From NCBI GenBank assembly GCA_963793305.1, contig CAWBZV010000018.1:1-19510 (forward strand): DNA of 19,510 nucleotides, in the 5' to 3' direction. The notes under the pieces are model-generated. The model saw nothing but the letters and a program-made list of their open reading frames with translations, ran no database searches and was not told the origin of the DNA. The position numbers and the translations under genes were made by a program. This document shows positions 1 through 15,366 of the stretch, piece by piece; the stretch's first letter is position 1; the number at the start of each line of letters is the position of its first letter. The stretch is from an uncultured Gemmatimonadales bacterium (GTDB taxonomy: Bacteria > Gemmatimonadota > Gemmatimonadetes > Gemmatimonadales > Gemmatimonadaceae).

Positions 1-522
1 GGACATCATGTAGCACATGGAGCCCGACTCCGGAGCACCCAGCTCTTTCTTGTCGACCGCGGTCTTGATCCCCGCGACGATTTGGGCTTGCGAGAAACCA
101 GCGAATGCCATCTCGGTCTCTTTCAGCAACATTGGCAGGACGGACCGAGCGGCTGGCGGGTTGTAGCACATGGGGCCCCGATTTTTTGGGTTCCAAAACT
201 CCCGGTTGCTCAACGGACCCGTAAACGCTCTGCCTACCAGGCAGACGAACCCGTTCTTGCCCTTGACGGCGGTTTCGTAGTTTTTCTGTCCCAGCACTAA
301 GACATCCGCATCGCGTGAGATCGAAGCCGGGGCCGCCGTGCGGGCCAGCGCTATTTCGGCGTCACGGCTCATCCGGTATTGCTCGACCGGAGCCATGCTG
401 GGATACGGTGATTTGGTATCCTGCGCCTTGGTGTCCTGCGCCTGGATCGGCCACACGGCGCCCACAACGGTGACCAACACGAGGGTTCCTCGTACGATCG
501 CTTTGCCTGTGTTTCGCAGCAT
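1..522 (-). CDS. Uncharacterised exported protein, paralog 1 (possible internal start within the fusion ORF; partial)
   Basis: GGGAG precedes ATG at 522. Translation gives a signal-peptide-like segment ending PIQA, then QDTKAQDTKSPYPSMAPVEQYRMSRDAEIALARTAAPASISRDADVLVLGQKNYETAVKGKNGFVCLVGRAFTGPLSNREFWNPKNRGPMCYNPPAARS...GSMCYMMS. Clearly homologous to 8263-8940, 12229-12918 and 14644-15366. Confidence 0.9.
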   Translation of the reverse strand, partial: MLRNTGKAIVRGTLVLVTVVGAVWPIQAQDTKAQDTKSPYPSMAPVEQYRMSRDAEIALARTAAPASISRDADVLVLGQKNYETAVKGKNGFVCLVGRAFTGPLSNREFWNPKNRGPMCYNPPAARSVLPMLLKETEMAFAGFSQAQIVAGIKTAVDKKELGAPESGSMCYMMS

Positions 523-885
523 TGATGGTCTCCCGTGCGATGGCTCCTGTATGGGTCGTATTTCGGCGCCTCCCAATCGGATCGACGGGATCCCGGACGC
601 GACGCGAATGGCATCGTTCAGATCCCTGGCATCGAGCAGGATGAGCCCGCCGATCTGCTCGTTCGCCTCGGCACATGGGTCGTGCATGACGGACCTCACG
701 CCGCCTCGGACTCGAACCGTGGTGGCCGCGTGCAGCAACTCGAGGGCATTGGCGACGACGCAGTGGCCACTCGCCCGCAGCGACTCGTCATAGGCCAGGC
801 TCTCATCGATCATGGCCTGCGATTCCTGATCGGACATGGCGCACAGTTTCTTCTCGTCGAAGAACACCACGCACAGATATTTCAT
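1..885 (-). CDS. YCII/DGPF-like domain fused in frame to uncharacterised exported protein (paralog 1); 3' end runs off the window
   Basis: Translated by hand; absent from the ORF track, likely because no stop falls in the window. RBS ACAGGAG, then ATG at 885: MKYLCVVFFDEKKLCAMSDQ...ATTVRVRGGVRSVMHDPCAEANEQIGGLILLDARDLNDAIRVASGIPSIRLGGAEIRPI. It continues without a stop as QEPSHGRPS-MLRNTGKAIVRGTLVLVTVVGAVWPIQAQ... Confidence 0.8.
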   Translation of the reverse strand, partial: MKYLCVVFFDEKKLCAMSDQESQAMIDESLAYDESLRASGHCVVANALELLHAATTVRVRGGVRSVMHDPCAEANEQIGGLILLDARDLNDAIRVASGIPSIRLGGAEIRPIQEPSHGRPSMLRNTGKAIVRGTLVLVTVVGAVWPIQAQDTKAQDTKSPYPSMAPVEQYRMSRDAEIALARTAAPASISRDADVLVLGQKNYETAVKGKNGFVCLVGRAFTGPLSNREFWNPKNRGPMCYNPPAARSVLPMLLKETEMAFAGFSQAQIVAGIKTAVDKKELGAPESGSMCYMMS

Positions 886-902
886 CGCTTCTCCTGTTCA
901 CG

Positions 903-934
903 CGATAGTCGTTCGGGGTGGTCAAAAATGGACA
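903..934 (-). promoter_or_regulatory. Putative ECF42-type promoter (class A1)
   Basis: Minus strand TGTCCA-N17-CGACTATCG upstream of ATG 885. The same TGTCCATTT...CGACTATCG occurs at 8970-9000. It resembles the ECF42 consensus TGTCGA/CG(A/T)C as I recall it. Confidence 0.7.
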
Positions 935-966
935 AACGGCTTTGTGTGGGTTTCGCGTAGGGGTAT

Positions 967-999
967 TCCAACCTTTTTGCCGCGCGACGTCACCCATTT
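967..999 (+). promoter_or_regulatory. Putative ECF promoter (class B1), probably leaderless transcript
   Basis: TCCAACCTTTTT...CGTCACCCATTT: AACC (970-973)-N14-CGTCAC (988-993). ATG 1002 follows 8 nt later with no SD sequence. Confidence 0.65.
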
Positions 1000-1001
1000 T
1001 T

Positions 1002-1343
1002 ATGAAGTACCTGTGCATGGTCTTCTTTGACGAGCAGAAGTTGGACGCGTTGTCCGATGACGAGTTGCGAGCATTCGAGGCTGCCACCCGAGCGTGCGAA
1101 GAGAACCTGCGGAGGAGCGGCCACTTCATAGCGGCGGAAGCGCTGCAATCGGTCCACGTGGCGACGACGGTGCGGGTGCGCAATGGAAGGGTGTCGGTCA
1201 CGGACGGGCCGTTTGCCGAGACCAACGAGCAGCTCGGCGGCTTCTCGCTGATCGAAGCGCCGAACATGGATGACGCCATCGCGCTGGCCTCGACGATCCC
1301 TGCCGCGGATCTCGGAGGGGTCGAAGTGCGCCCCATCAAATGA
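1002..1343 (+). CDS. YCII-related / DGPFAETKE-family protein
   Basis: MKYLCMVFFDE...ATTVRVRNGRVSVTDGPFAETNEQLGGFSLIEA...GGVEVRPI. Its stop overlaps the next start (ATGA at 1340-1343). Confidence 0.93.
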   Translation: MKYLCMVFFDEQKLDALSDDELRAFEAATRACEENLRRSGHFIAAEALQSVHVATTVRVRNGRVSVTDGPFAETNEQLGGFSLIEAPNMDDAIALASTIPAADLGGVEVRPIK

Positions 1344-2605
1344 GAGCGGCGCGTGCGCGCGTCATCGAGGCGCGCGAGATCGTGGAGGAGATCTATCGGA
1401 CCGAATCGCGTCGCGTTCTCGCCACGCTCATCGATCTCCTGGGCGACTTTGACCGCGCCGAGGAAGCCATGCACGATGCGTTCGCGGCGGCGGTCGAACA
1501 GTGGCCGCACACCGGTATGCCGGCGCGCCCCCGTGCGTGGCTGATATCGACGGGGCGATTCAAAGCCATCGATAGCCTGCGGCACCGGGCGCGATTCGAC
1601 GCATCGCTCGCCGAGTTTGCGCGGCGGCTGGAGCAGGACACGATCGACCCGGTGGACTGGGACGACGAGCGCATCCCGGACGACCGGTTGCGGTTGATTT
1701 TCACCTGTTGTCACCCCGCGTTGCCGCCGGACGCCCAGATCGCGCTGACGCTCCGCGAAGTCTGCGGCCTCACCACGGAGGAGATCGCCCGCGCCTTCAT
1801 TACGGTTGCGCCAACGGTGGCCAAGCGCATCGTGCGCGCCAAAGCGAAGATCCGCGACGCGCGCATTCCCTTCGAGGTGCCGTCGCCAACCGATCTTCCC
1901 GACCGGTTGGACGCCGTTCTCCAGGTGGTCTACTTGATGTTCACCGAGGGATACGCCGCATCGTCTGGCGCATCACTGACCCGACCCATTCTCACCGGCG
2001 AAGCCATGCGCCTCGGACGGCTGCTGGCCGAGTTGCTGCCGGAGAGCGAAGTGCAAGGACTCCTGGCGCTGATGGTACTCCAGGAATCGCGCTCGAGCGC
2101 GCGGACCCTGCCGGAGGGCGATCTGGTGTTACTCCAGGACCAGGACCGTTCGCTCTGGAATCGGCACCTGATCAATGAAGGCCTGGCCCTTGTGGAGCGA
2201 GCACTCGCATCCCGCCGGTTCGGCCCCTATACGCTGCAGGCCGCGATCGCCGCTGTCCATGCGAAAGCATCCAGCGCGGCCACGACGGACTGGAACCAGA
2301 TCGTGGGACTCTACGATGTGTTGCAGCGGGTGAGTCCGTCGCCGGTCGTCGAGCTCAACCGCGCGGTGGCGGTCGCAACCCGCGACGGTCCGCTGGTCGG
2401 TCTCAGGCTCATCGACGCGATTCTCGCGCGCGGCGATCTCCACGACTATTACCTCGCGCACGCCGCGCGGGCCGACTTGTGCCGCCGACTCGGGAGGCGA
2501 GCCGAGGCTCGCGAATCGTATGCCAAGGCCCTCGGTCTGGCTCGGCCGGAACCGGTGCGCCGGTTTCTGACGAAACGCTTGAATGCCTTGGCGGAGGGCG
2601 CGTAA
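1340..2605 (+). CDS. ECF sigma factor, ECF42 type (sigma2/sigma4 plus C-terminal TPR-like extension)
   Basis: 421 aa. Motifs: AEEAMHDAFAAAVEQWP...P.RPRAWL, DDRLRLIFTCCHPAL, ALTLREVCGLTTEEIARAF, YLMFTEGY, QDRSLWN, GPYTLQAAIAAVH, SPVVELNRAVAVA. Directly downstream of a DGPF gene. Confidence 0.93.
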   Translation: MRAARARVIEAREIVEEIYRTESRRVLATLIDLLGDFDRAEEAMHDAFAAAVEQWPHTGMPARPRAWLISTGRFKAIDSLRHRARFDASLAEFARRLEQDTIDPVDWDDERIPDDRLRLIFTCCHPALPPDAQIALTLREVCGLTTEEIARAFITVAPTVAKRIVRAKAKIRDARIPFEVPSPTDLPDRLDAVLQVVYLMFTEGYAASSGASLTRPILTGEAMRLGRLLAELLPESEVQGLLALMVLQESRSSARTLPEGDLVLLQDQDRSLWNRHLINEGLALVERALASRRFGPYTLQAAIAAVHAKASSAATTDWNQIVGLYDVLQRVSPSPVVELNRAVAVATRDGPLVGLRLIDAILARGDLHDYYLAHAARADLCRRLGRRAEARESYAKALGLARPEPVRRFLTKRLNALAEGA

Positions 2606-2618
2606 CCGGCGGCGAGAT

Positions 2619-2650
2619 TTCGAACCTTTTGGGGGATCACCGTCACTTAC
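2619..2650 (+). promoter_or_regulatory. Putative ECF promoter (class B2), candidate autoregulatory promoter of the short ECF sigma
   Basis: TTCGAACCTTTTGG...CGTCACTTAC: AACC (2623-2626)-N14-CGTCAC (2641-2646), directly upstream of the sigma gene. Confidence 0.65.
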
Positions 2651-2656
2651 TGATGC

Positions 2657-3217
2657 GTGCCTTTCTCTCGTGACGCACCATTGGGTCGACCCATCGCCGT
2701 GAGCGACGATCTCGCGCTTGTTCGGGAGTTCTGGCGAACGCGCGGCGAGGAACCCTTTCGAGCGCTCTACCGAGCGCACACGCCGGGAGTCTACGCTCTC
2801 GCGCTTCGGTTGACGGGCGGCGATGACACTGAGGCTGAGGACCTGGTGCAAGAGTGTTGGCTCCGCGCGGTACGCTCGCTGGACGCGTTTCGCGGCGCGG
2901 GCACCTTCCGGTCCTGGCTACACGGAATACTCGTGAACGTGCGGCGGGAGCGCGTTCGGGCCGATTGGCGATTCGTCGACGCGCCGGATTTCGACCCCCT
3001 TGCGCCCGAGATGGCCTTCCACACGACGCTCGACCTGGACCTCGCTGTCGCCGCATTGCCGGACGGTGCGCGCGATGTGTTCGTCCTGCACGATGTGTAT
3101 GGATACACGCACGTGGAAATTGGAAGGCTCCTCGGCATCATGGCTGGGACGTCGAAGAGTCAACTCAACCGAGCGCGGACGCTCATCCGGCAGCGTGTAG
3201 AAAGGACTGAGGATTGA
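2657..3217 (+). CDS. Short ECF RNA polymerase sigma factor (sigma-24 family)
   Basis: Region 2: AEDLVQECWLRAVRSLDAFRG...FRSWLHGILVN. Region 4: LPDGARDVFVLHDVYGYTHVEIGRLLGIMAGTSKSQLNRAR. Start is GTG 2657 or GTG 2699. Confidence 0.93.
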   Translation: MPFSRDAPLGRPIAVSDDLALVREFWRTRGEEPFRALYRAHTPGVYALALRLTGGDDTEAEDLVQECWLRAVRSLDAFRGAGTFRSWLHGILVNVRRERVRADWRFVDAPDFDPLAPEMAFHTTLDLDLAVAALPDGARDVFVLHDVYGYTHVEIGRLLGIMAGTSKSQLNRARTLIRQRVERTED

Positions 3218-3219
3218 TC

Positions 3220-3666
3220 ATGAATCGAGAGCCGGCACCTGGGCTCGAGGAGCGCGTCGTACGGGCGCTCACCGCCGCGGGCCTCATCCGTCGTAGGCGA
3301 TGGCCGCGGATCTGGATGGCGGCGGCGGCCGTCACACTGGCCGCGGCAGTTGCGCTATCGGGGTTGCATCTGGGCCGCGGAAAAGCTCCAGGTGAAACCT
3401 ACGTCATGCTGTTATATGAAGACTCGACCTTCCAGTTGCCAGCGCCCGGCCACGTCGCCGAGCGGCGGGCCGAATCTGCCCAATGGGCCGACAGTCTCGC
3501 TGAGCGCGGCAAGTTGGATCTCGGCGGGCGCGTCGACGGTTCCGGGCCTATCACGGGGATGTTCATCATCCGCGCGCCAACGGAAGCTGACGCCGCGAAA
3601 CTCGCCGCGTCATGCCCGCACCTGAAATACGGCGGTCACATCGTGGTGCGACGCTTCTTCGAGTAG
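3220..3666 (+). CDS. Single-pass membrane protein with C-terminal YCII-like domain; putative anti-sigma factor
   Basis: GAGG SD, then ATG 3220, 2 nt after the sigma stop. Short N-terminus, RRRR, hydrophobic IWMAAAAVTLAAAVALSGLHL, then YVMLLYE...W..L..RG.L..G...ITGMFIIRA..EA.A..LA..CPHL..GG.I.VR (YCII-like pattern). Confidence 0.8.
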   Translation: MNREPAPGLEERVVRALTAAGLIRRRRWPRIWMAAAAVTLAAAVALSGLHLGRGKAPGETYVMLLYEDSTFQLPAPGHVAERRAESAQWADSLAERGKLDLGGRVDGSGPITGMFIIRAPTEADAAKLAASCPHLKYGGHIVVRRFFE

Positions 3667-3671
3667 CATGA

Positions 3672-3721: not shown

Positions 3722-5203
3722 TTACTCGCAGACCGGCGCGTAGTGGTTATTCCGTGCCGTGCGTTCGGGCTGCGGGATGTTCAACTGTGAGGTGTGGTGG
3801 TCCGACGCGCCCCATGTCGTCAGGTCCTGGAGCAGGAGACCATAGTCGCGCTCCGCGACGATCTGGTCGCCGGTGTTGTCGCCCATGAGTGAAGGGATCA
3901 TCTCCTTCATCAAGAAGTCGCGAGTGTGCACGTAGTCGGTCGCCGCGAGCGGGAGCGCGGAGGGGAGCCCACCGACGACCGTGCGCACGTTGTCCACGAT
4001 CAATGCCGCCTGGGCGTAGGAGCCGGTACCGAGATACGCCCGCGCGAGTAGGAACTGCAGCTCGATGTTGCGGATGATCGGTATCGGGGTCGACAAGCCA
4101 ATATTGTTGACGTATCGGTAGCTCGACGCCAAGCCGGGGACATTCGTCGGCAGGGACGGCGCCTGCGCGAACTTCGCCAGGAACCGCTGGTCGTTGAGTG
4201 TATCGATCTGTTGCGCCGCACTTTCCAACGCGAAGTCGTCCCCTGAGATGCCGAAGATCGGGTTGGAGAGATCGTTCGCGGCGCTCGAGAATGAGTGAAA
4301 CACGCCGTTGTCGTTGAAGTTCACCGCTTCCCCGGCAGTGAGCGTCGGCGAGTACAGGTTTGATGCCGTGATATCGGTGATCGCCGAGTCGAGCTGATTC
4401 AAGTCCGGGGCGCCGGCTGATGACGGCGTTGGGCGGATCCCGCCAGGTCCGTTCGCGACCGCGTACGCGAGCTCGAGACGCGAGCGTCCGCGGAGCGCGA
4501 GCACCAGGTTCATCCAACCGCCGGCCGTGTTGCCGATCGAGGCGAAGCCCGGCGGCATCTGCAGCGCGGGGAACACGGAGCCTGGCACGCCCATGACGGT
4601 TGTCGGCCCGGCGGCCGCAAAGTCCGCTTGCGCGGTGTCGAGCATCGCGATGATCACGCGCCATGCATCCCTGGCGCAGACGATCGGAGCGAGAGTGCCC
4701 GAGATCGGTCCGCCCACGTTGTTGATCGCGATGCCGACCGTGTCGTGCGCCAACAAGATGTACATGTAATTGAGCGCCTTCCACGTTTCCATCGAGCCCT
4801 GGAGGGCTTTGATGTTCGCCGTAGGAATAGCGGCCCCCGCGTTGGTGAGCGTCGGCAGCACGATGATGAGGGAGTCCGCATCTTTGATGGCCTGGTACTC
4901 CTCATTCCAGACCTGCGCGCCGAAGTTGTCGACATCGAGCGGGAGCTCACCGGTGAGCTCGGTGACAAAGCGGTCCTCGGAGGGCGTAAAATATGCCGAT
5001 GTTCGGGCGAATCCCTCCATCGACTCGTGGAAGAAAACAGTATTGACGCGGGTTTGACTGAAGGCACCCGTCATCTCGCTTTGCAACGCGGCGACTGAGT
5101 GCAGAAATCCCGTTGGCACGTTGTAGTCAGGCACGAGCGATTCGTTACAGGCGGCCAGCGCCGTACCCGCGGCGAGAATCCCGAGTGTTCTATATATGCG
5201 CAT
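3722..5203 (-). CDS. RagB/SusD-like outer-membrane lipoprotein
   Basis: Lipobox LAAC at residues 16-19; 493 aa; starts 3 nt downstream of the SusC-like gene; C-terminal PIIRNIELQFLLARAY...VDNVR resembles the SusD helix motif. Confidence 0.8.
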   Translation of the reverse strand: MRIYRTLGILAAGTALAACNESLVPDYNVPTGFLHSVAALQSEMTGAFSQTRVNTVFFHESMEGFARTSAYFTPSEDRFVTELTGELPLDVDNFGAQVWNEEYQAIKDADSLIIVLPTLTNAGAAIPTANIKALQGSMETWKALNYMYILLAHDTVGIAINNVGGPISGTLAPIVCARDAWRVIIAMLDTAQADFAAAGPTTVMGVPGSVFPALQMPPGFASIGNTAGGWMNLVLALRGRSRLELAYAVANGPGGIRPTPSSAGAPDLNQLDSAITDITASNLYSPTLTAGEAVNFNDNGVFHSFSSAANDLSNPIFGISGDDFALESAAQQIDTLNDQRFLAKFAQAPSLPTNVPGLASSYRYVNNIGLSTPIPIIRNIELQFLLARAYLGTGSYAQAALIVDNVRTVVGGLPSALPLAATDYVHTRDFLMKEMIPSLMGDNTGDQIVAERDYGLLLQDLTTWGASDHHTSQLNIPQPERTARNNHYAPVCE

Positions 5204-5206: not shown

Positions 5207-8188
5207 TTAGAATCCCAGGTCGAGGGCGACGAAGTAGGACCGGCTCGGCGGATAGGGTGTCACGTCCTGGCCGCGACCCAACTGCTGGATGCCGAAGTTC
5301 GAGACTTCGGGGTCGAGGCCCGGGTACTTGGTCCACGTGACCAGGTTGCGGCCCGTCACGATGAGGCTCGCGTGCCGGAGATAGCCCTTGCTGATGACAT
5401 TGATGAACGACTGCGGGAGATCCCACCTCCCGGTCAGCTCGCGCAGCTTCAGGAACGACGCGTGCTGGACGTACACGGATTGGCCATTCTTGATCTCTGC
5501 GAAACGCGCGTTGGTAGCCGCCGTGTCCGCGAAGTTGCCCGCGGCTAGTCCCGAGACCGCACCTTTGAAGGCGTAGTCCCAGTATTGCTGCGTCAGGTCG
5601 ACCACCGACATGCCGTCGCGCCAGTCGAAGAAGGCATGGATGTGGAACGGCCCGTAGCTCAGGTCATTGCCGAAGCCGAGCGTGAGCGCCGGCGCGACGT
5701 TGCCCAACTGTACGAGCGTTCCTGAGGCGGCCGAGGACGCATTGTAGCCGTAGACCGCGTTCGCTGACGCGCCCGGTTGAATTTGGTAGCCGCCGAACGG
5801 CGCGTAGCCGAAGAAGCTGCCAACGGGGAATGGCGGGATCGGCAGGTTGTCGACGCGGTCATAGACGCGCGAGTACACCTCGGAGGTGCTCCACGAAAAC
5901 TTGCCCGCCTGAATCGGCGTCGCGTTGAGCGAGAGCTCGAGACCCTGGTTCGTGATCTGGCCGCCGTTCGTCCATCCATTTGAGTAGCCGGCGGATGGAA
6001 GCACCGACTCCTCCAGCAGCAGGTCCGTGACGCGCTTCCGGAAGATCGTCGCGTTCAACGCCAGCCGCCCCTTGAACATGGTCAGATCGGCGCCGGTCTC
6101 GATGCTGGTGTTGGTCTCCGGGCGCACGTTCGGATCGCCTTTGGTCGCCGAGAACCCGGTGCTCGCGATCGCGTTGTAGTTCGTCACCTTCGCCGAGTCG
6201 AATTTCACGCCATAGATCGGCAGCGTACCCGCCTGGCCGTACGCCGCGCGGACCTTGAGCTCGGTGGCACCCGTCAAGACGCGGAACGAGCCCGCGACTT
6301 TCGGATACGGATAGAGCTTGTTGATTTGGCCGTTGTTCGAGCTTCGCTCGGCGTTGACGCCACCCGTCAGGGACATTCGCTCGTTGAACAGCAGCAGCTG
6401 CTCCTGCACGTAATAGCCGGCATCGTTCGACTCGGTCTGCTGATAGAACGGGCTGATCTGCGCCCCGGTGGTATACGCGTAACCACCGGCTGGCAGACCG
6501 GCGCCGATGTCAGCGTTCTGGTAGGTCGCGTCCTTGTCTCGCGTCAGACCGATCGACGTGGTCGCCGAGAGCAGCGTGCTCGGCGTCCACGTGTGGATCA
6601 CGCTGACCGACCAGTTTGAGAGCCGGTCGTATCCCTGGTTGCTCGTGCTCACGCCGGGGAGTGGGACCAACCCGGAGTTTTCGACCTGTAAGCTGCCGGG
6701 TGCGAAGAACTGCGTGTGCTCGTTCACGAAGTCGGCGCCACCGACGACTGCGATCTGGAGGCTCTGCTTCGTCGCCGTGTACAGCTTCCAGTTGAGGGTT
6801 CCGCCGAGCGTGGTCCGGTTCACTTCATCCGGCGTCTGTATCTGGCTCGCATCCTGGAAGGCACTGGCGGGGCCAAACGGATTATTCACGTAGCCGCCGC
6901 CCGCATGGCAGCTCATGCAGTAGAACGACGGCGTGTACGCCAACACATCGTATCCGGAGATACCGAAGTTGTCGTTGCCGTTGACGCCGGTCCGGTTCAG
7001 CGAGGAGGTATAGGTCAGGTTCGCCGCCACGCTGATCGTCGAGAACAGGGTCTGGTTCACGCTGGCGCGGGCCGACTGCTTATTGTAGCCGGTGTTGATC
7101 TGCGTGCCATTGTCGTACTTGGTGAGACCCGACATGAAGTAGGTCGTCGTCGGCGTGCCACCACGAATGGTCACATTGGTCTCGTTGGAGGTCTGCTTGT
7201 TGCCATACAGCTGTGACTGCAGGTCGCAGAAGCCGTTGCACTCATTGTAGTTCTGCAACACGTCCGCGCTGCTCATGCCGACGGTGGCGCCGAGCGCAGT
7301 TGCCTGGCTCAACGTGAAGTGGCGCGCGTCGAACTCGTGCTCCAGCTCGTAGTGGCCGATTTTCTGGGTGGCGTCGACTTCGGGCTTCGAGGTCGAGCCC
7401 TTCTTCGTCGTGATCACGACCACGCCGGCGGCCGCACGGCTGCCGTAGATCGAGGCCGCGGCGGCGCCTTCCAGCACCTGCATCGACTCGATATCGTTCG
7501 GGTTCAAATCGGCGATGCGGTTGATCGATTGATCCTGACTGCTCGGCATGACGCTGCCGTTCGCGTTGCTCACCGCGTTCAACCCGGTCTGGAACACGGC
7601 GTTGGAGACGATCACGCCGTCGACGACGTAGAGGGGCTCTGTGTTGCCGTTGATTGACGTGACGCCGCGAATGTTGACCTGCAAACCGCCGCCGGGCGCG
7701 CCGGAGTTCTGGTCGATCTGCACGCCCGCGACTTTGCCTTGGAGCGCATTCTCGATGGTCGCGGTTGGCGCTCCGTTGAGTTGCTCGGCGGTCACGATCG
7801 GGTCGTGGGTCACGGCGTTCTTACTCGCAACCGTCGTCGCCACGCCGGTGATCACCTCTTGCTCGAGCTTCAGCACGTCCTGCTTGAGGGTGATCGCGTA
7901 TTCGGTCTGGCCCTGGACCAGCGGGATGGTGGCGCCAGTGTAGCCGATGCGGCGGACTTCGATCGACTTGGCGTCAGCGGGCACGTTCCGGAGTGTGAAT
8001 CGGCCGCTGTCCGTGGTGAGCGTGCCGAGCGTGGTTCCGGTCACGGCGATGCGGACCGAGGGGATGGGATACTTGCCGTCCGCATCCGTCACTTGTCCGG
8101 TGATGCGCGGTGTTGCTTGGCCAGACGCGCTTCGCGCCAAGGCAAGTGCAAGCGCTACGGCCGTCGCGATAGACGAACGTACTGTCAA
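5207..8188 (-). CDS. SusC/RagA-family TonB-dependent outer-membrane transporter
   Basis: GGAGG, then TTG start; signal peptide; N-terminal ITGQVTD...G.F.L carboxypeptidase-regulatory-like domain; plug motifs SGAPGGGLQVNIRG, EPLYVVDGV, NPNDIESMQVLEGAAAASIYGSRAAAGVVVITTKKG; C-terminal GRNLVTWTKYPGLDPE...YPPSRSYFVALDLGF. Confidence 0.95.
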   Translation of the reverse strand: MTVRSSIATAVALALALARSASGQATPRITGQVTDADGKYPIPSVRIAVTGTTLGTLTTDSGRFTLRNVPADAKSIEVRRIGYTGATIPLVQGQTEYAITLKQDVLKLEQEVITGVATTVASKNAVTHDPIVTAEQLNGAPTATIENALQGKVAGVQIDQNSGAPGGGLQVNIRGVTSINGNTEPLYVVDGVIVSNAVFQTGLNAVSNANGSVMPSSQDQSINRIADLNPNDIESMQVLEGAAAASIYGSRAAAGVVVITTKKGSTSKPEVDATQKIGHYELEHEFDARHFTLSQATALGATVGMSSADVLQNYNECNGFCDLQSQLYGNKQTSNETNVTIRGGTPTTTYFMSGLTKYDNGTQINTGYNKQSARASVNQTLFSTISVAANLTYTSSLNRTGVNGNDNFGISGYDVLAYTPSFYCMSCHAGGGYVNNPFGPASAFQDASQIQTPDEVNRTTLGGTLNWKLYTATKQSLQIAVVGGADFVNEHTQFFAPGSLQVENSGLVPLPGVSTSNQGYDRLSNWSVSVIHTWTPSTLLSATTSIGLTRDKDATYQNADIGAGLPAGGYAYTTGAQISPFYQQTESNDAGYYVQEQLLLFNERMSLTGGVNAERSSNNGQINKLYPYPKVAGSFRVLTGATELKVRAAYGQAGTLPIYGVKFDSAKVTNYNAIASTGFSATKGDPNVRPETNTSIETGADLTMFKGRLALNATIFRKRVTDLLLEESVLPSAGYSNGWTNGGQITNQGLELSLNATPIQAGKFSWSTSEVYSRVYDRVDNLPIPPFPVGSFFGYAPFGGYQIQPGASANAVYGYNASSAASGTLVQLGNVAPALTLGFGNDLSYGPFHIHAFFDWRDGMSVVDLTQQYWDYAFKGAVSGLAAGNFADTAATNARFAEIKNGQSVYVQHASFLKLRELTGRWDLPQSFINVISKGYLRHASLIVTGRNLVTWTKYPGLDPEVSNFGIQQLGRGQDVTPYPPSRSYFVALDLGF

Positions 8189-8969: not shown

Positions 8970-9000
8970 CGATAGTCGCCGGAGACTGACGAAATGGACA
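8970..9000 (-). promoter_or_regulatory. Putative ECF42-type promoter (class A2)
   Basis: Minus strand TGTCCA-N16-CGACTATCG; both boxes are identical to the copy at 903-934 while most of the spacer differs. Confidence 0.7.
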
Positions 9001-9032
9001 TCGCGCCGTCGGCGGTGGTGCAGAAAAGTGAA

Positions 9033-9062
9033 TTCGAACCTTTTGGTCATCCGAGATCACTT
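9033..9062 (+). promoter_or_regulatory. Putative ECF promoter (class B3)
   Basis: TTCGAACCTTTTGG (identical to 2619-2632)...GATCACTT: AACC (9037-9040)-N14-GATCAC (9055-9060). Confidence 0.6.
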
Positions 9063-9093
9063 CTTACTGAGCCGATGCTACGGAGGAGGGAGC

Positions 9094-10392
9094 GTGGTGG
9101 TGTCCGAGCGAGATCGGGTGCGCGCGATCGTCGAGGCGATTTATCGCACGGACTCGCGTCGCGTCCTTGCCACGCTCATCGATCTCCTGGGCGACTTCGA
9201 TCGCGCCGAGGAAGCGATGCACGATGCGTTCGCTGTGGCGGTGGAACAGTGGCCGCATCAGGGGATGCCCGCGCACCCCCGTGCGTGGCTGATATCAACG
9301 GGGCGATTCAAGGCCATCGACAAGCTGCGGCGTCGGGCGCGCATCGATGCGTCGCTCGCCGAGTTTGCGTGGCGACTGGAGCAGGAGACGATCGACGTGG
9401 CGGACCGGGACGACGATGAGCCAATCCCGGACGACGAGCGCATCCCGGACGACGAGTGGATTCCGGACGACCGGTTGCGGGTGATCTTCACCTGTTGTCA
9501 CCCCGCGTTGCCGCCGGACGCCCAGATCGCGCTGACGCTCCGCGAAGTCTGCGGCCTCACCACGGAGGAGATCGCACGCGCGTTCCTCACGACCGCGCCC
9601 ACGATGGCGAAGCGCATCGCGCGCGCCAAAGCGAAGATCCGCGACGCGCGCATTCCCTACGCATTTCCATCAGCAACCGATGTGGCCGAACGATTGGATG
9701 TCGTGCTGCGCGTGATCTATCTGATGTTCACCGAGGGATACGCGGCATCCTCGGGTGCATCGTTGACGCGGCCGGTGCTGACCGGCGAGGCCATTCGTCT
9801 CGGACGACTGCTGGTCGAGTTGCTGCCGGAGAGCGAAGTGCAAGGACTCCTGGCGCTGATGCTCCTTCAGGAGTCGCGGTCCAGCGCGCGGACCTCGCCG
9901 CAAGGCGAGCTGGTGTCACTCGACGATCAGGACCGCTCGCTCTGGAAACGCGATCTCATCGATGAGGGCGTCGCGCTGGTGGAGCGCTCACTCGGGTCCC
10001 GCCGGTTCGGCCCCTACACATTGCAGGCCGCGATCGCCGCCGTGCATGCGGAAGCGTCCAGCGCGGCCGCGACGGACTGGAAGCAAATCGTGGGACTCTA
10101 CGATGTGTTGCAGCGCGCGAGTCCTTCACCGGTCGCGGAATTGAACCGGGCCGTGGCGATCGCGAAGCGCGACTCGCCGGACGCCGGCCTCACGCTCATC
10201 GACGCGATTCTCTCGCGCGGCGATCTCCACGACTATTACCTCGCGCACGCCGCGCGGGCCGACCTCTGCCGGCGACTCGGCAGGCGAGCCGAGGCTCGCG
10301 AGTCGTATGCGAAAGCCCTCCGCCTGGCTCGGCCGGAGCCGGTGCGGCGGTTTCTGACGAAGCGATTGAATGCCTTGGCGGAAGGCGGGTGA
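9094..10392 (+). CDS. ECF42-type sigma factor, close paralog of 1340-2605
   Basis: Same motifs as 1340-2605 with long identical peptide stretches. SD GGAGGAGG precedes a GTG GTG GTG run (9094/9097/9100), so the exact start is uncertain. Confidence 0.93.
   Translation: MVVSERDRVRAIVEAIYRTDSRRVLATLIDLLGDFDRAEEAMHDAFAVAVEQWPHQGMPAHPRAWLISTGRFKAIDKLRRRARIDASLAEFAWRLEQETIDVADRDDDEPIPDDERIPDDEWIPDDRLRVIFTCCHPALPPDAQIALTLREVCGLTTEEIARAFLTTAPTMAKRIARAKAKIRDARIPYAFPSATDVAERLDVVLRVIYLMFTEGYAASSGASLTRPVLTGEAIRLGRLLVELLPESEVQGLLALMLLQESRSSARTSPQGELVSLDDQDRSLWKRDLIDEGVALVERSLGSRRFGPYTLQAAIAAVHAEASSAAATDWKQIVGLYDVLQRASPSPVAELNRAVAIAKRDSPDAGLTLIDAILSRGDLHDYYLAHAARADLCRRLGRRAEARESYAKALRLARPEPVRRFLTKRLNALAEGG
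9412..9471 (+). repeat. 18-bp in-frame tandem repeat (DDExIP x3) in the sigma2-sigma4 linker
   Basis: GACGATGAGCCAATCCCG / GACGACGAGCGCATCCCG / GACGACGAGTGGATTCCG / GACGAC. The paralog has a single unit (1661-1678). Confidence 0.9.
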
Positions 10393-10438
10393 CTTAGTAT
10401 CGTCCCTATGTGAGTCGCTTCTGGCAGGATGCCCGTCT

Positions 10439-10603
10439 GGCGCTGCCGTGATCGCCTCGCTGCTCTTCGAGGTGAGCCCGACGGATCCGCTGGCGCTCAT
10501 CGGCGCCTGCGCGCTCTTGCTCGCCGTCGCGGCGATCGCCGCGTACGTACCGGCCTATCACGCGAGCCGGGTCGACCCGGCTCGCGCCCTCCAGGCCAAC
10601 TAG
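10439..10603 (+). pseudogene. C-terminal remnant of a MacB/FtsX-like (ADOP-type) ABC permease
   Basis: IASLLFEVSPTDPLALIGACALLLAVAAIAAYVPAYHASRVDPARALQAN* matches the typical permease tail LLF.VSP.DP....A.Y.PA.RA.RVDP..AL. Only about 55 codons remain, with no credible start. Confidence 0.8.
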
Positions 10604-10605: not shown

Positions 10606-11355
10606 TTACTGAGCAGACGCCTTTGCCGCACGCTCGATCAAGCGCGCCACGGCATTGGGCTTGGCGACGTAGACCGCGTGGCTGGCGGGAACTTCGATCG
10701 TTTCGCTGCCGGCCCGCTTGGCCATGTTGCGCTCGAGATCGGGATTGATGTTGTGGTCGCGAGTCGCGACTAGCGCCCAGCTCTTCTTCTGGTGCCAGGC
10801 GGCCGACGTCACCGGGGCGCCGCCGGCGGCCTTGGCCAGCATCGCCTGGGAATGTGCCATGAAGCTCGCCTGGGCCGGCGGGAGGTCGGCAGCGAAATCG
10901 CCGGGGAACGCGTCCGGATCGAGGTACAGAAAATCGTCCTTGGTGGCGCGCATGTCGTTGTTGGCGGCGGGCATTGTCGAGAGCAGGCTGACGGCACTCT
11001 CGCCTTGGTCGGGGATGAAGGCGGCAATGTAGACGAGGCCGACGACGTTCGGCGCATTGCCCGCTTCGGTGATGACCACCCCGCCATAGCTGTGGCCGAC
11101 CAGAATGGTGGGCCCTTGTTGCAGGTCCAGCACGCGTTTGGTCGCCGCGGCGTCGTCGGCGAGTGATGTCAGCGGCTCCTGCACCACGCTGACCGTATAG
11201 CCGTCCTTCCGAAGAATGTCGGCGACGCCCTGCCATCCGGAACCGTCGGCGAAGGCCCCGTGGACGAGGACGACGTTCTTGACCGGCTGGGCCCGCGCCG
11301 GGGCGACGGCAGCTGACAGAAGCGCGACCGCCGCGGCAATAGATGTACGCTGCAT
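10606..11355 (-). CDS. Exported alpha/beta hydrolase (esterase-like)
   Basis: ATG 11355; signal peptide ending ARA-Q; VVLVHGAFADGSGW; nucleophile elbow GHSYGG; candidate catalytic D (TRDHNI) and H (ASHAV). Confidence 0.92.
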   Translation of the reverse strand: MQRTSIAAAVALLSAAVAPARAQPVKNVVLVHGAFADGSGWQGVADILRKDGYTVSVVQEPLTSLADDAAATKRVLDLQQGPTILVGHSYGGVVITEAGNAPNVVGLVYIAAFIPDQGESAVSLLSTMPAANNDMRATKDDFLYLDPDAFPGDFAADLPPAQASFMAHSQAMLAKAAGGAPVTSAAWHQKKSWALVATRDHNINPDLERNMAKRAGSETIEVPASHAVYVAKPNAVARLIERAAKASAQ

Positions 11356-11358
11356 TGG

Positions 11359-11376
11359 TTTAACCTGTAGGTTGAA
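11359..11376. promoter_or_regulatory. Palindromic operator, probably for the adjacent ArsR-family repressor
   Basis: TTTAACCT-GT-AGGTTGAA with a perfect AACCT/AGGTT core, 3 nt from the hydrolase start. A degenerate copy, AAACCTTTGGGTAAA, lies at 11416-11430. Confidence 0.65.
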
Positions 11377-11402
11377 TGAGTATCGATGAATAACCGTGCG
11401 CA

Positions 11403-11432
11403 TTGACAGATTGTGAAACCTTTGGGTAAACT
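11403..11432 (+). promoter_or_regulatory. Sigma70-type promoter, leaderless arsR-family transcript
   Basis: TTGACA (11403-11408)-N18-TAAACT (11427-11432); ATG 11439 follows 6 nt later with no SD. Confidence 0.65.
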
Positions 11433-11438: not shown

Positions 11439-11792
11439 ATGAAAGACGCCGCTTCGCGCGCCGCGCGTCTCGACGCGGTATTCGTCGCGTTGGCCGATCC
11501 GACGCGGCGGGCGATTCTCGAACGGCTCTCGCAGAGCGAGGCGCGCGTGACCGATGTGGCGGCGCCCTTCCCCATGTCGTTGACCGCGGTGTCGAAACAC
11601 ATCCGCGTGCTGGAAGCGAGCGGCATGGTCGAGCGGCACAGGAGAGGGCGCGACCAGATTCTCTCCATCAATACTCGTTCGCTAGACGAGGTCGATGGCT
11701 GGATCGCTCGGATGCGCCGCTATTGGGAGGAGCGGTTGAGCGCCATGGAGCATCTGCTGCGCGAGCTCAAGACGGATCGCAAGCGTGGCTAG
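11439..11792 (+). CDS. ArsR/SmtB-family transcriptional regulator
   Basis: LDAVFVALADPTRRAILERL...V..VA.PFPMSLTAVSKHIRVLEASGMV.R...GR; C-terminal W...R.YWEERL typical of SRPBCC-linked members. Confidence 0.95.
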   Translation: MKDAASRAARLDAVFVALADPTRRAILERLSQSEARVTDVAAPFPMSLTAVSKHIRVLEASGMVERHRRGRDQILSINTRSLDEVDGWIARMRRYWEERLSAMEHLLRELKTDRKRG

Positions 11793-12222
11793 CGGTGACG
11801 CGACGGGCCCGGTCGTGCGGATACGCCGGCGCGTCAAGGCCGGGGCGGAGGAGATCTTCGACCTGTGGACCAAACCCGAGTTGATGGCTCGGTGGATGTC
11901 TCCCTATCCGGGCACGGTCCATTGCCAGGCGAGTTGTGACCCCCGCCCCGGCGGAGCCTTCAGCCTGGTCATGTCATTGGAGGAATCGAGCCGCGAAGTA
12001 TCTGGCACCTATATGGAAGTCGACCGACCGCGCAAGCTGGTGTTCACGTGGAGTGGCCCGCTCACGAACAACGTGAAGACGTTGGTCACCGTCGAGCTCA
12101 TTCCGCACGGCGATGAGACCGAGCTCGTGCTCACCCATGAGCGTCTTCCGACGTTGGCGATTTGTGAAGGTCACACGAAGGGCTGGGGAAATATTTTGGA
12201 CCATCTCTCGGACATGGCGTGA
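11785..12222 (+). CDS. SRPBCC / AHSA1-like ligand-binding protein
   Basis: IFDLWTKPELMARW, DPRPGGAF, GTYMEVDRPRKLVFTW, TLVTVEL...TELVLTHE, H..GW..IL..L; overlaps the arsR-family stop. Confidence 0.93.
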   Translation: MASGDATGPVVRIRRRVKAGAEEIFDLWTKPELMARWMSPYPGTVHCQASCDPRPGGAFSLVMSLEESSREVSGTYMEVDRPRKLVFTWSGPLTNNVKTLVTVELIPHGDETELVLTHERLPTLAICEGHTKGWGNILDHLSDMA

Positions 12223-12228: not shown

Positions 12229-12918
12229 TCAGTGTGCAGCCGACGCGGTGATATCCGTTCCGTCCGACCACTGACCCACGGGAACGTTGAACTCGATCAC
12301 CGGCGCTGGATCCCAGGACACGAAATAGTTAGGGTCGTCCTGCAATACGCCGTTGCGTGGAAGCTCAAACATCACGTGGGCCAGATTATGGCCACCGCGA
12401 TCGGTCAGGTACGCTTCCTTGGACATCATGTAGGCCATGGATCCCGTCTCCGGAACGCCCAGCTCTTTCTTGGCGACCGCAGTCTTGATCGCCTCGACGA
12501 TTTGGGCTTTCGAGGCGCCAGCCAATGCCATCCCGGCCTCTTTCACGGCATACGGCCAGAGGGACCGCGCGGCAGGCGGATTCCAGCATATGGGGCTCCG
12601 ATTTTTTGGATTCCAAAACTCCGGGTTGTTCAATGGCCCCGCAAATGCTCTGCCCACCACACAGAGGAAACCGTTCTTGCCTTTGACCGCGGTTTCGAAG
12701 TTCTTCTGTCCCAGCACCAAGATCTCGGCATCGCGTGATATCGACGCGGGGGCCGCGGTGCGTGCCAGCGCGATTTCTGCGTCACGGTCCATCCGGTATT
12801 GCTCGATCGGCGCCATGGTGGGATACGGTGATTTGGTATCCTGCATTTTTGTGTCCTGCGCCTGAATCGGCCACGCGCCGCCCAGCACGGCGACCAGCAC
12901 CACATGTCGGAGCATCAT
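12229..12918 (-). CDS. Uncharacterised exported protein, paralog 3
   Basis: ACAGGAG SD; signal peptide MMLRHVVLVAVLGGAWPIQA; same family motifs through WSDG. Confidence 0.92.
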   Translation of the reverse strand: MMLRHVVLVAVLGGAWPIQAQDTKMQDTKSPYPTMAPIEQYRMDRDAEIALARTAAPASISRDAEILVLGQKNFETAVKGKNGFLCVVGRAFAGPLNNPEFWNPKNRSPICWNPPAARSLWPYAVKEAGMALAGASKAQIVEAIKTAVAKKELGVPETGSMAYMMSKEAYLTDRGGHNLAHVMFELPRNGVLQDDPNYFVSWDPAPVIEFNVPVGQWSDGTDITASAAH

Positions 12919-12944
12919 TTTGTCTCCTGTTGATGTGATTTCGG

Positions 12945-12977
12945 AAATGGGTGCTCCGGCACACGGAAAAGGTTGGA
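12945..12977 (-). promoter_or_regulatory. Putative ECF promoter (class B4)
   Basis: Minus strand TCCAACCTTTT...GAGCACCCATTT: AACC-N14-GAGCAC. It shares TCCAACCTTTT and CACCCATTT at identical spacing with the copy at 967-999. Confidence 0.6.
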
Positions 12978-13011
12978 GCGTCGGCCAATGAATGCGAAAC
13001 TCACACAGAAC

Positions 13012-14277
13012 TCACACAATCGCGAGACGATCGAGCTCGCGTCGCATGAGTTTGGCTTCGGCAATCGAATTGGCGAGGGCGATGGCACGGTTGAGTGCAT
13101 CGCGCGCCTCGTCGAGCCTATTGAGTTCTTTCAGCAGCGCGCCGCGCAGCCCGTGCAAATAGAAGTACGTCGCCAGCTCGCGTTGCAACGGGTCGATCAT
13201 CGCGAGTGCCGCCTCGGCACCGTGCAGCTTCCACACGGCCACGGCTCGATTGAGCGTGACCACGGGTGATGGTTGCAGCGCCTCGAGCGCCTGATACAGC
13301 GAGTCGATCTCTTTCCACAACGTGTCTTCGGGTCGGCTCGCGCGGGCATGGAGCGCCGCAATGGCGGCCTGGAGTTGGTACGGACCCGGGTCCTGGTAGA
13401 CGGAGGCTCTTTCCAGTAACAGCCGCCCTTCATCAATGAGCGCCCGATTCCAGCGACTCCGATCCTGCTCGTCGAGCACGACGATCTCGCCATTCGCGTC
13501 GAAGCGTGCCGGCGCGCGGGACTGCTGCAGCAGCATAAACGCCAGAAGTCCCAAGACCTCTGGATCGGTTGGGAAAACGCTCAATAAGAGGCGCCCCAAG
13601 CGAATGGCTTCTTCCGCAAGCGCTTCGCGCGCCGCGGCGGTGTCCGGCGTGCTCCCATAGCCTTCATTGAAGACGAGATAGATCATCGTCGAAACGGCCG
13701 CGAGTCGCGCTCTCCGCTCGGAGGCGCCGGGCGTGTCGAAGTCGACGCCAACCTCCGCAATCGCCCGCTTGGCGCGGGTGATCCGCTGCTCCATCGCCGC
13801 GGGAGACACCAGGAATGCCTTGGCGATCTGCTTGACCGTGAGCCCAGACACGAGGCGAAGGGCGAGGGCAATTTGCTGGGTCGCGGGCAAGGTGGGGTGC
13901 CCGCACACGAACAACAGCCGCAGGATGTCGTCTCCGTAGTCGCTCTCGTCGAGGCGTTCCAGAGTCAGGTCGTCGCGGGCGTCCGTGAGGGCATCAGCGT
14001 CGGGTAAGGGTTCGATGGAGCGCGTACGGCGCTGAGCGTCCAAGGCCGCATTGCGCCCGACCATAATGAGCCACCCAGTGGGGTCTCGGGGCGGGCCTTT
14101 CTGGGGCCAGGTCACGAGAGCCCGAAGGCAGGCTTCCTGAAAAGCCTCCTCAGCGGTGTCCAAATCACGGAAGTACCGCAGAAGGGCCGCAATGGCTTTC
14201 GGCCGGGCCCCCAAAATCGCTATGTCAATGTCGGCTGGGAGACCCTCAGGGCGTCCTTGAAGCAGAATCCACCCCAA
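13012..14277 (-). CDS. ECF42-type sigma factor, divergent third paralog
   Basis: ARPKAIAALLRYFRDLDTAEEAFQEACLRAL..WP..GPPRDP, DDILRLLFVCGHP.L, IALALRLVSGLTVKQIAKAF, YLVFNEGY, QDRSRWN, GPYQLQAAIAALH, SPVVTLNRAVAV. No N-terminal ATG; start uncertain (TTG 14277 or TTG 14214). Confidence 0.9.
   Translation of the reverse strand: MGWILLQGRPEGLPADIDIAILGARPKAIAALLRYFRDLDTAEEAFQEACLRALVTWPQKGPPRDPTGWLIMVGRNAALDAQRRTRSIEPLPDADALTDARDDLTLERLDESDYGDDILRLLFVCGHPTLPATQQIALALRLVSGLTVKQIAKAFLVSPAAMEQRITRAKRAIAEVGVDFDTPGASERRARLAAVSTMIYLVFNEGYGSTPDTAAAREALAEEAIRLGRLLLSVFPTDPEVLGLLAFMLLQQSRAPARFDANGEIVVLDEQDRSRWNRALIDEGRLLLERASVYQDPGPYQLQAAIAALHARASRPEDTLWKEIDSLYQALEALQPSPVVTLNRAVAVWKLHGAEAALAMIDPLQRELATYFYLHGLRGALLKELNRLDEARDALNRAIALANSIAEAKLMRRELDRLAIV
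14229..14255 (+). promoter_or_regulatory. Putative ECF42-type promoter (class A3)
   Basis: TGTCGG (14229-14234)-N17-CGTC (14252-14255) upstream of the DGPF gene at 14292. Confidence 0.55.
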
Positions 14278-14291
14278 GCAGGAGATGCCTA

Positions 14292-14642
14292 ATGAGAGTC
14301 ATGGTATTTGGTAAAGCGACCAAGGACACTGAAGCCGAGGTGCCGCCCGATCCGCAGATGATCGAGGCAATGGACAAGTATAACCAGGCCCTCATCGCGG
14401 CCGGCATCCTCAAGGACGGCGGCGGACTCAAGCCAACCCGCTTTGCCAAGCGCGTGCATTTCTCAGGGAAGAACCGCACCGTGATCGACGGTCCATTTGC
14501 CGAGACGAAGGATGTGATCGCGGGCTACATGGTGTGGGAGGTGAAGTCCATCGAAGAAGCCATCGAATGGGTGAAGAAGGGCCCCGTCGCATCGGGTTCC
14601 GACGTTGAGATTCGTCCACTGTACTCGCCGGACGACTTTTAA
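14292..14642 (+). CDS. YCII-related / DGPFAETKE-family protein
   Basis: CAGGAG SD; MRVMVFGKAT...M.KYN..L..AGIL..GGGLKPT..AKRV.FSG..RTVIDGPFAETKDVIAGY..WEVKS.EEAIEWVK...VEIRP. Confidence 0.95.
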   Translation: MRVMVFGKATKDTEAEVPPDPQMIEAMDKYNQALIAAGILKDGGGLKPTRFAKRVHFSGKNRTVIDGPFAETKDVIAGYMVWEVKSIEEAIEWVKKGPVASGSDVEIRPLYSPDDF

Positions 14643-14643
14643 C

Positions 14644-15366
14644 ATGAACAAGAATCTTCTATTCGCGCTCGCCGCCGCTGTCAGCGCGGCGAAGCCTGCC
14701 ATCGCGCAAGACACCAAGCAGCCCTACCCCGCAATGGCTCCGATCGAACAATATCTCATGGATCGCGACGCCGAGATCGCCCTCGCCAAGAGCGCCGCTC
14801 CAGACGCCATCTCGCGCGACGCTTCCGTGATCGTCTTGACCCGCCACGGCTACGAGACCGCAGTCCAAGGCAAGAACGGTTGGGTTTGCGAGGTCGCACG
14901 CAGCTGGATGGCCATGTTCGATCATCCCGAATTTTGGAACCCGAAAGTCCGCGCCGCGGCCTGCCTCAACCCTCCAGCGGCCCGCTCCGTTCTGACCGAC
15001 ACCTACAAACGCACCGAATTACTCCTGGCTGGCCGGTCCAAGCAAGAAGTCATCGCCGCGACCAAAGCAGCGATAGACAAAAAAGAATATCCACCCCTCG
15101 AGCAGGGAACGGTCTGCTACATGATGTCCAAATCCTCATACCTCACCGATAACGGCGGCCACAACGTTCCCCACCTCATGTTCTACCAAACCGACAAGCC
15201 CGACGCGGCCTGGGGCGCCAACGTGGCGAATGCTCCGGTTGGATCGGCGAACTACTGGTACTGGTCCGGGGACGCGTATCCACAGCTCAAGAGCTTTCCT
15301 CCCCTGGCTGTGTTCTTGGTGATGGTGCCCAAATGGTCCGACGGCACCCCCGCCCCGCCCATGTGA
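14644..15366 (+). CDS. Uncharacterised exported protein, paralog 4 (most divergent)
   Basis: ATG 1 nt after the YCII stop (TAA-C-ATG); signal peptide MNKNLLFALAAAVSAAKPAIA; YPAMAPIEQY, GKNGWVC, EFWNPK, ACLNPPAARS, YMMSK..YLTD.GGHN..HLMF, WSDG. Confidence 0.92.
   Translation: MNKNLLFALAAAVSAAKPAIAQDTKQPYPAMAPIEQYLMDRDAEIALAKSAAPDAISRDASVIVLTRHGYETAVQGKNGWVCEVARSWMAMFDHPEFWNPKVRAAACLNPPAARSVLTDTYKRTELLLAGRSKQEVIAATKAAIDKKEYPPLEQGTVCYMMSKSSYLTDNGGHNVPHLMFYQTDKPDAAWGANVANAPVGSANYWYWSGDAYPQLKSFPPLAVFLVMVPKWSDGTPAPPM

Follow-up and report, generated by a model that had tools for sequence, protein, structure and literature searches.

The stretch of DNA analysed here (the window) is one whole contig of 19,510 nucleotides, CAWBZV010000018.1, from an uncultured Gemmatimonadales bacterium whose genome totals 5.72 Mb. 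It contains four copies of a gene encoding an unnamed, predicted exported protein, three genes encoding large sigma factors of the ECF42 type (ECF, extracytoplasmic function), genes of the YCII (DGPF) superfamily, and a small ECF sigma gene followed by a predicted anti-sigma gene. The original prediction, made from the letters of the window, had described four paralogs of one exported family, and the four open reading frames (ORFs) were confirmed at 1-522, 8263-8940, 12229-12918 and 14644-15366. Aligned to copy 1, the other three show 75, 78 and 54% identity, and hydropathy reveals a hydrophobic N-terminal stretch in each of the four copies. Copy 1, cut by the contig edge, belongs to a single ORF (1-885, minus strand) in which a YCII domain (residues 1-114) is fused in frame to the family protein with no stop between them; an internal start at 522 has its own ribosome-binding site. 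The same fusion is present in a congeneric genome (G001), where the YCII part shows a ratio of nonsynonymous to synonymous substitutions (dN/dS) of 0.20, and is absent from four other congeneric genomes. Copies 2 (8263-8940) and 3 (12229-12918) are on the minus strand and copy 4 (14644-15366) on the plus strand. Against the congeneric genome, the three full-length copies and the part of copy 1 show dN/dS values of 0.10 to 0.17 (0.10 for copy 2), which indicates purifying selection.

The three ECF42-type genes are ECF42a (1340-2605, plus strand), ECF42b (9028-10392, plus strand, with a likely true start near 9094-9100) and ECF42c (13012-14277, minus strand). ECF42a and ECF42b are 83% identical, and ECF42c is 41% identical to both. 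Each of them faces a family copy in the divergently transcribed unit, with or without a YCII gene, as had been claimed: the divergent partner of ECF42a is the YCII-copy 1 ORF, that of ECF42b is copy 2 itself, and that of ECF42c is YCII3 (14292-14642, plus strand; PF03795, E 4.7e-13) followed by copy 4. A YCII gene in the position before the sigma gene is present for ECF42a (YCII1, 1002-1343, plus strand; PF03795, E 1.6e-19), absent for ECF42b and divergent for ECF42c. The remaining three of the six ECF42 genes of the genome have no family copy nearby. All three large sigmas of the window show sigma2, sigma4 and DUF6596 matches, and their C-terminal extension of about 200 residues shows weak TPR matches, below the curated cut-off. 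Downstream of them are the small ECF gene (ECF42a), a permease remnant (ECF42b; 10406-10603, plus strand, start-less and resembling the C-terminal end of what we take to be an ABC-type permease) and family copy 3 (ECF42c), and no anti-sigma is encoded there. The three sigmas conform to the general features ascribed to ECF42 in the original prediction, lack of a classical anti-sigma and a TPR-like extension, the latter weakly.

In a family tree of 169 rows, built by a quick method and excluding fragments with fewer than 160 aligned residues (copy 1 among them), copies 2 and 3 and the orthologue of copy 1 in the relative form one clade (support 100), and copy 4 clusters with Acidobacteria sequences. 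Since ECF42a and ECF42b are so similar, these three family members form one clade and copy 4 stands apart, the window sequences record two independent events rather than three; in this reduced form, the claim that the arrangement reflects more than a recent duplication stands. The native start codon of ECF42c is gone: a 41-bp deletion (window 14229-14277, minus strand) removes the ATG and the leader present in G001, and upstream only a TTG is left, with no clear ribosome-binding site, so that ECF42c may be poorly translated or decaying.

Promoter boxes and the link of the family to ECF42

The ECF42 promoter motif is given as TGTCGAT / CGTC in PMC7826278, where ECF42 is among the largest ECF groups, with 10,294 sequences. 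One-base variants of this motif, conserved in G001, precede all three divergent units of the window. The predicted promoters are TGTCCA-N17-CGAC at 908-934 (minus strand), before the YCII-copy 1 ORF and conserved in G001; TGTCCA-N16-CGAC at 8975-9000 (minus strand), before copy 2 and the SusC and SusD genes that follow it; and TGTCGG-N17-CGTC at 14229-14255 (plus strand), before YCII3-copy 4, with the same variant in G001. These are all three loose matches of the window, each on the correct strand and 22-36 bp ahead of its unit.

Outside the window, the best 80 of 593 matches to copy 4 were used as a sample of loci. The original prediction expected homologs elsewhere to be enriched next to ECF42 and YCII genes, and this enrichment was found: a YCII gene is within 5 kb in 40 of the 80 loci and a full-length ECF42 gene in 20, and in random windows of the source genome the values are 1.1% and 0.9%. 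Neither outcome that the original prediction named as refuting it, a lack of such enrichment or a match to a characterised protein, came about. A strict ECF42 box, non-coding and at most 1.5 kb upstream, is present in 28/80 loci, compared with 5/282 control windows, 0/80 antisense and 0.66 in shuffled sequences. An ECF42-like match inside the family coding sequence arises from the codons of a conserved peptide, and excluding such matches left 28/80 unchanged. The strongest test is an evenly drawn sample of Rhodanobacteraceae, in which 21 of 28 family loci carry the strict box upstream (antisense, 1/28), with variable spacers, and in 19 of those 21 the family ORF is directly downstream of the box. 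All 28 loci are more than 5 kb from any ECF42 gene. The family is present in 21/61 Rhodanobacteraceae genomes and ECF42 is encoded elsewhere in all 21 (Fisher p 0.011). Because family loci this far from ECF42 carry the strict box, synteny cannot explain these boxes, and they are the signature of a trans-acting regulon. Boxes ahead of family genes span Gemmatimonadota, Acidobacteriota and Gammaproteobacteria.

The same results bear on the explanation that the arrangement arose only by local duplication with hitch-hiking inside a single genus, with no regulatory link. The identity between ECF42a and ECF42b and the single clade of copies 2, 3 and the copy-1 orthologue fit it, and so does the finding that in 0/11 Gemmatimonadales genomes outside the genus holding both genes are these within 5 kb of each other. 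It is largely refuted by the boxes before unlinked family genes in Rhodanobacteraceae, by the separate origin of copy 4 and by the repetition of the association across the tree, where the ECF42/YCII context needs 15 changes, at least 12 of them forced; we give it hardly any weight.

Some results weigh against ECF42 control of the family. The loose pattern by itself does not exceed chance in the window (3 matches, 2.28 expected), so the argument there rests on position and conservation. The 80 loci are the best matches to copy 4, biased to it and mutually related. In an evenly drawn sample of an acidobacterial order, presumably Terriglobales, the strict box is within 1.4 kb in 4/30 loci and YCII or ECF42 within 1.5 kb in 8/30; a family copy is within 5 kb of ECF42 in 10 of its 26 family-bearing genomes. 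Balancing these results, we hold with good confidence that ECF42 sigmas would transcribe the exported-family gene. In a divergent acidobacterial ECF42 subtype (L169-L173) the order YCII, ECF42, family gene is fixed, and the tree places all five of its family genes together in a clade (support 98).

The original prediction had called the family a dedicated ECF42 target or sensing component. The neighbourhood enrichment and the upstream boxes support a target, and "dedicated" fails in both directions of co-occurrence. ECF42 occurs without the family in 29/50 Rhodanobacteraceae genomes, 13/32 of the acidobacterial order sample, 18/34 Gemmatimonadales relatives (own genome and one further genome excluded) and 18/21 of a phylum-wide sample (one genome excluded). 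Weak alignments that spanned just positions about 20-100 (E>1e-20), as in 14 of 34 relative genomes with a match, were removed ahead of the count. The family occurs without ECF42 in 0/21 Rhodanobacteraceae, 5/21 Gemmatimonadales relatives and 7/26 acidobacterial order genomes. Half of the 80 loci have neither YCII nor ECF42 as neighbour, and often show TetR, HxlR, ArsR or LytTR instead: TetR/LytTR, HxlR with VOC, DoxX or RibD-like genes, or ArsR-SRPBCC. Across the 80 loci the neighbours include RibD-like (27), LytTR (13), TetR (11), BNR (8), ArsR (6) and HxlR (6); the profile scan covered the nearest 90 of 150 neighbours, and the 45 most recurrent neighbour clusters were also read from sequence. 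Known ArsR-SRPBCC, HxlR-VOC/DoxX/RibD and TetR cassettes carry the family as cargo beside the same effector families; their effectors are cytoplasmic or membrane proteins named in Pfam, whereas the family is predicted to be exported and is unnamed. The family is likely a member of the ECF42 regulon; it is not a dedicated ECF42 component, because many ECF42 genomes lack it and it also stands beside TetR, HxlR and ArsR regulators.

The three sigmas share with the known ECF42 and YCII/DGPF systems (Streptomyces venezuelae Sven_0747/4377/7131, Pseudomonas putida ECF-10, Sinorhizobium meliloti RpoE10) the sigma2-sigma4-DUF6596-TPR architecture of about 420 residues, no adjacent anti-sigma, YCII neighbours (for ECF42a and, divergently, ECF42c) and, as predicted here, a TGTC(G/C)(A/G)...CG(A/T)C promoter and a small local regulon. 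Known ECF42 targets are YCII genes, SRPBCC and glyoxalase-like proteins and an efflux pump; those predicted here are the unnamed exported family and SusC/SusD pairs. In S. meliloti, the targets given in PMC6180224 are a protein with a hydrophobic-ligand-binding domain and glyoxalase-like proteins. The single unassigned S. meliloti target, SMb20474, was considered as a homolog of the family and rejected.

Predicted anti-sigma types and a putative cascade of sigma factors

Downstream of ECF42a is a gene encoding a small ECF sigma with no C-terminal extension (2657-3217, plus strand; domain search), whose paralogs on contigs C2 and C3 of the genome follow a family gene. In the C2 copy (L002 5229-5829), and likewise in G034 (L276), the family gene ahead of the small ECF carries a frameshift. 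The next gene (3214-3666, plus strand), coupled to the small ECF in the position after it, encodes a predicted anti-sigma with a basic N-terminus, one predicted transmembrane segment and a C-terminal YCII-like domain (PF03795, E 1.8e-5 at 63-143), which is predicted to lie outside the membrane, in the periplasm. It has 356 homologs. The 61 genomes searched hold 15 loci that encode this predicted anti-sigma at full length (9 genomes, 5 genera); every one has a family gene within 3 kb, and in 11 of the 15 it is directly upstream of the small sigma gene. Four window proteins match PF03795, as do known members of the YCII superfamily, such as the TftG dehydrochlorinase and a Caulobacter YCII-sigma fusion, and sigma-fused YCII is described in PMC8999054; unlike these, the YCII domain of the predicted anti-sigma is C-terminal, behind a hydrophobic segment, and has no insert before the GP motif.

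The family domain itself is also found in an anti-sigma. In 49 of 80 metagenome loci recovered with a fused query, a single-pass zf-HC2 protein has the family domain as its C-terminal, outer part (47 in frame), and an ECF gene is directly upstream in all 44 loci with room for it. These fusions probably share one origin, because they are close relatives forming one clade on the tree. They share with the described ZAS (zf-HC2) ECF pairs with one transmembrane helix, such as acidobacterial ECF206 and ECF231 (PMC7826278), an ECF gene followed by a zf-HC2, transmembrane and outer domain protein; unlike these, the outer domain is the unnamed family, and a free copy of the family often follows. In metagenome contigs L179-L226 a cassette recurs that consists of TetR, ECF, zf-HC2/transmembrane/family anti-sigma, free family copy and LytTR; its ECF gene is preceded by a conserved motif, GGAACTTTT...GACATT. 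Other composite proteins are tandems of two family domains and a single fusion with the AHSA1 family (P0198, P0212, P0248, P0265), and an N-terminal part of the family in frame with a SusC receptor, 1,251 residues long, seen once in a weak search for longer fusions (L124 7833-11486, G003; P0271).

The second half of the original claim, a sensing component, is thus supported for other ECF systems, through the anti-sigma fusion, and has no support for ECF42 itself. A stronger version of it would make the exported protein a co-sensor or anti-anti-sigma that relays an outside signal via YCII domains to ECF sigmas, ECF42 included. The zf-HC2 fusion and the constant proximity of a family gene to the membrane YCII anti-sigma fit this proposal, as does the in-frame ORF of YCII, hydrophobic segment and family domain kept in two species with a dN/dS of 0.20; the ECF42 inducer and the partner of the TPR tail are given as unidentified, with YCII suspected as the partner, in PMC8999054. 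Against it, the ECF42-linked YCII proteins have no signal peptide, so that their export was rejected and they would be in another compartment than the exported protein; the family is lacking in a large share of the ECF42-bearing genomes (29/50, 18/34 and 13/32, as above); the YCII-copy 1 fusion is present in just 2/6 congeneric genomes and retains its internal start; and the ECF42 targets of S. venezuelae given in PMC7826278 are YCII genes only. We regard it as rather improbable. A complex prediction of the anti-sigma YCII domain with the family protein of the same operon scored 0.00, which is no evidence either way.

A second motif, Box B (SAACCYTTT-N12-KCACY), is the predicted promoter of the small ECF. 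It is located at 969-994 (plus strand) upstream of YCII1-ECF42a, at 2622-2647 (plus strand) upstream of the small ECF gene, where it predicts autoregulation, at 9036-9061 (plus strand) upstream of ECF42b and at 12950-12975 (minus strand) upstream of copy 3, and it also occurs before family genes in G001, G003, G034 and G035. Copy 3 shares its strand with the upstream ECF42c gene, yet bears this different promoter motif of its own. The four occurrences are the only ones genome-wide, all inside the window. Ahead of small-ECF, family and YCII-ECF42a genes in G001, G003, G034 and G035, including loci with no nearby ECF42, a matrix made from these four sites reaches scores of 16-30, with a null maximum of 12.6. 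Strict matches in 61 genomes are all (13/13) at small-ECF, family or YCII-ECF42a genes, and the control gave 0. In these 61 genomes, 7 of 10 matches to the TGTCCA box, all in this genus, precede YCII-copy 1, copy 2-SusC-SusD or further SusC/SusD pairs. Downstream of copy 2 in the window are a SusC/RagA TonB-dependent receptor gene (5207-8188, minus strand; TIGR04056, E 2e-132) and a gene for a putative SusD-like lipoprotein (3722-5203, minus strand), named by its position and lipobox and showing no family match. TGTCCA-N17-CGACTAT is directly before SusC/SusD pairs in the source genome (G000), G001 and G003, which suggests TonB-dependent import as a predicted ECF42 output in this genus. Upstream, on contig C12 of the source genome, a piece of the family's C-terminal end abuts unrelated sequence. 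The loci concerned are L004 3744-6839 and 8294-8491 on C12, L123 and L120.

These motifs would compose a two-tier cascade. The membrane YCII anti-sigma would release the small ECF, which would read Box B and switch on itself, copy 3, YCII1-ECF42a and ECF42b; in turn, ECF42a and ECF42b would act at the TGTCCA box to induce YCII-copy 1, copy 2-SusC-SusD and a second SusC/SusD pair. Unlike known ECF42 systems, ECF42a and ECF42b would use the TGTCCA variant and are apparently transcribed by another ECF and not by themselves. Three observations tell against the cascade: Box B was defined from the very sites it describes; its score is at or below the null in 10/22 small-ECF-associated or stand-alone upstream regions and in 6/9 of a further set; and the ECF42 tier is present in only three genomes of one genus. 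For this genus we nevertheless consider a cascade from the small ECF to ECF42 probable, with less confidence than in ECF42 transcription of the family.

A tentative wider proposal, which we hold to be possible but doubtful, is that the family is a new extracytoplasmic domain for ligand sensing, possibly of an unsolved fold, and composes with YCII an interchangeable two-domain sensing kit; in this genus the membrane YCII anti-sigma and the small ECF would give the ECF42 sigmas, which lack an anti-sigma, their missing outside input through a cascade ending in SusC/SusD import. Either domain would serve as the outer sensor of an anti-sigma and both would be induced as free effectors; if so, the ligand of the family would reveal the ECF42 inducer.

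Nature and possible role of the exported family

The family comprises at least 7,991 homologs (7,991 of 8,000 scored candidates) in 2,738 clusters at 50% identity, found in Acidobacteriota, Gemmatimonadota, Rhodanobacteraceae, Caulobacteraceae and others. Profile matches to the family domain were absent from Pfam (0/107 members) and NCBIfam (0/61), no PDB sequence matched at E<=0.001, the ESM Atlas gave only clusters of "hypothetical protein" with none named, and no plasmid homolog was found. Literature searches, in sources covered in part, found neither the family nor a YCII-domain anti-sigma nor an ECF-to-ECF42 cascade described, and unnamed families are hard to find by words; the group descriptions of PMC7826278 were only partly covered, and others could mention YCII anti-sigmas or the family, and the regulon datasets of PMC7776599, likewise covered in part, may list such genes as hypothetical targets. 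The statement of the original prediction that no description was known therefore agrees with the Pfam, NCBIfam, PDB and literature results, and the family is real and apparently undescribed. The two anti-sigma architectures, with an outer YCII domain or an outer family domain, and the predicted sigma cascade also appear to be new.

All 107 close homologs that retain their N-terminus show it to be hydrophobic, with a lipobox in two, so the protein is likely exported via a cleaved signal peptide. Conserved residues, numbered from window position 14713, are Glu21, Cys59, Arg63, Cys84, Met137, Ser139, His154 (invariant), Met156 and Trp208. Structure prediction and a Foldseek search, as the original prediction proposed, gave confident models of an alpha/beta domain (predicted local distance difference test, pLDDT, 95.6 for copy 4 and 90.9 for a divergent member), and neither model had a Foldseek match at E<=0.001 or a VIA match at Z>=5 among 48,161 chains. 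The best VIA alignments, below the threshold, have Z 2.7, root mean square deviation (rmsd) 5.5 and 99 aligned residues (cytochrome c'-beta), and Z 3.9, rmsd 4.3 and 49 aligned residues; these results establish neither that the fold is new nor that the family is related to cytochrome P460/c'-beta. RNA evidence comprised one soil metatranscriptome (share 0.08, contigs only, mostly less than 95% alike) and was uninformative.

Our preferred reading, with a probability of roughly 0.58, is that this unnamed family of about 220 residues is a likely ECF42 target and a likely periplasmic small-molecule-binding effector, reused as a sensor domain in some lineages. Small-molecule binding taken alone is only slightly favoured. 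The exported protein would fold around a Cys59-Cys84 disulfide, and Arg63, Met137, Ser139, His154, Met156 and Trp208 would compose a predicted ligand site, capturing or buffering an incoming toxic or xenobiotic compound; outside the cytoplasm, the family would be the equivalent of the YCII, SRPBCC, VOC and RibD-like proteins of the same operons, which are cytoplasmic. The conserved His, Arg and Glu could as well be catalytic, which is a point against binding and leads to the strongest alternative, an enzyme (hydrolase, lyase or transferase) that would carry out detoxification in the periplasm as a member of ECF42 and related regulons. Consistent with an enzyme are the invariant His154 and the near-invariant Arg63, Glu21 and Ser139, the enzyme-type neighbours (VOC, RibD-like, epoxide hydrolases and alpha/beta hydrolases) and the dehydrochlorinase activity of one YCII member (PMC7641849). 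Pfam and NCBIfam showed no catalytic motif, and the domain is kept whole both where it forms the outer portion of an anti-sigma and where it is repeated in tandem, as fits a binding module, so that we consider the enzyme unlikely. The residues Met137, His154 and Met156, (near) invariant even in the divergent branch and located on neighbouring predicted strands of the model, would also suit a periplasmic Cu(I)/Ag(I) chaperone with a Met-His-Met site, by analogy to CusF or PCuAC. Copper-handling families are absent from the 45 neighbour clusters that recur most often in the 80 loci, read from sequence, with the 90 nearest neighbours scanned, and a copper chaperone is improbable.

The preferred reading, a binding effector under ECF42, gives ECF42 a conserved, predicted exported target, and strains of Dyella, Rhodanobacter and Frateuria that carry its predicted promoters can be cultured. 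The family promoter is a ready reporter for inducer screens, and the protein, compact and confidently modelled, is usable for ligand fishing. The new architectures and the predicted cascade occur in abundant, little-studied soil phyla.

Other genes of the window

An ArsR and SRPBCC (AHSA1) gene pair (11439-12222, plus strand) is convergent with copy 3, and the same pair borders family genes in other genomes. A gene encoding an alpha/beta hydrolase with a signal-peptide-like N-terminus is located at 10606-11403 (minus strand), and comparable hydrolases recur next to family genes. The region at 15435-17748 (plus strand) and 17729-19477 (minus strand) holds two overlapping ORFs in different frames, which encode Ig-like repeats and then a WD40/PD40 propeller and are probably a single frameshifted gene, together with a convergent gene encoding a Ser/Thr kinase bearing a TonB C-terminal domain.

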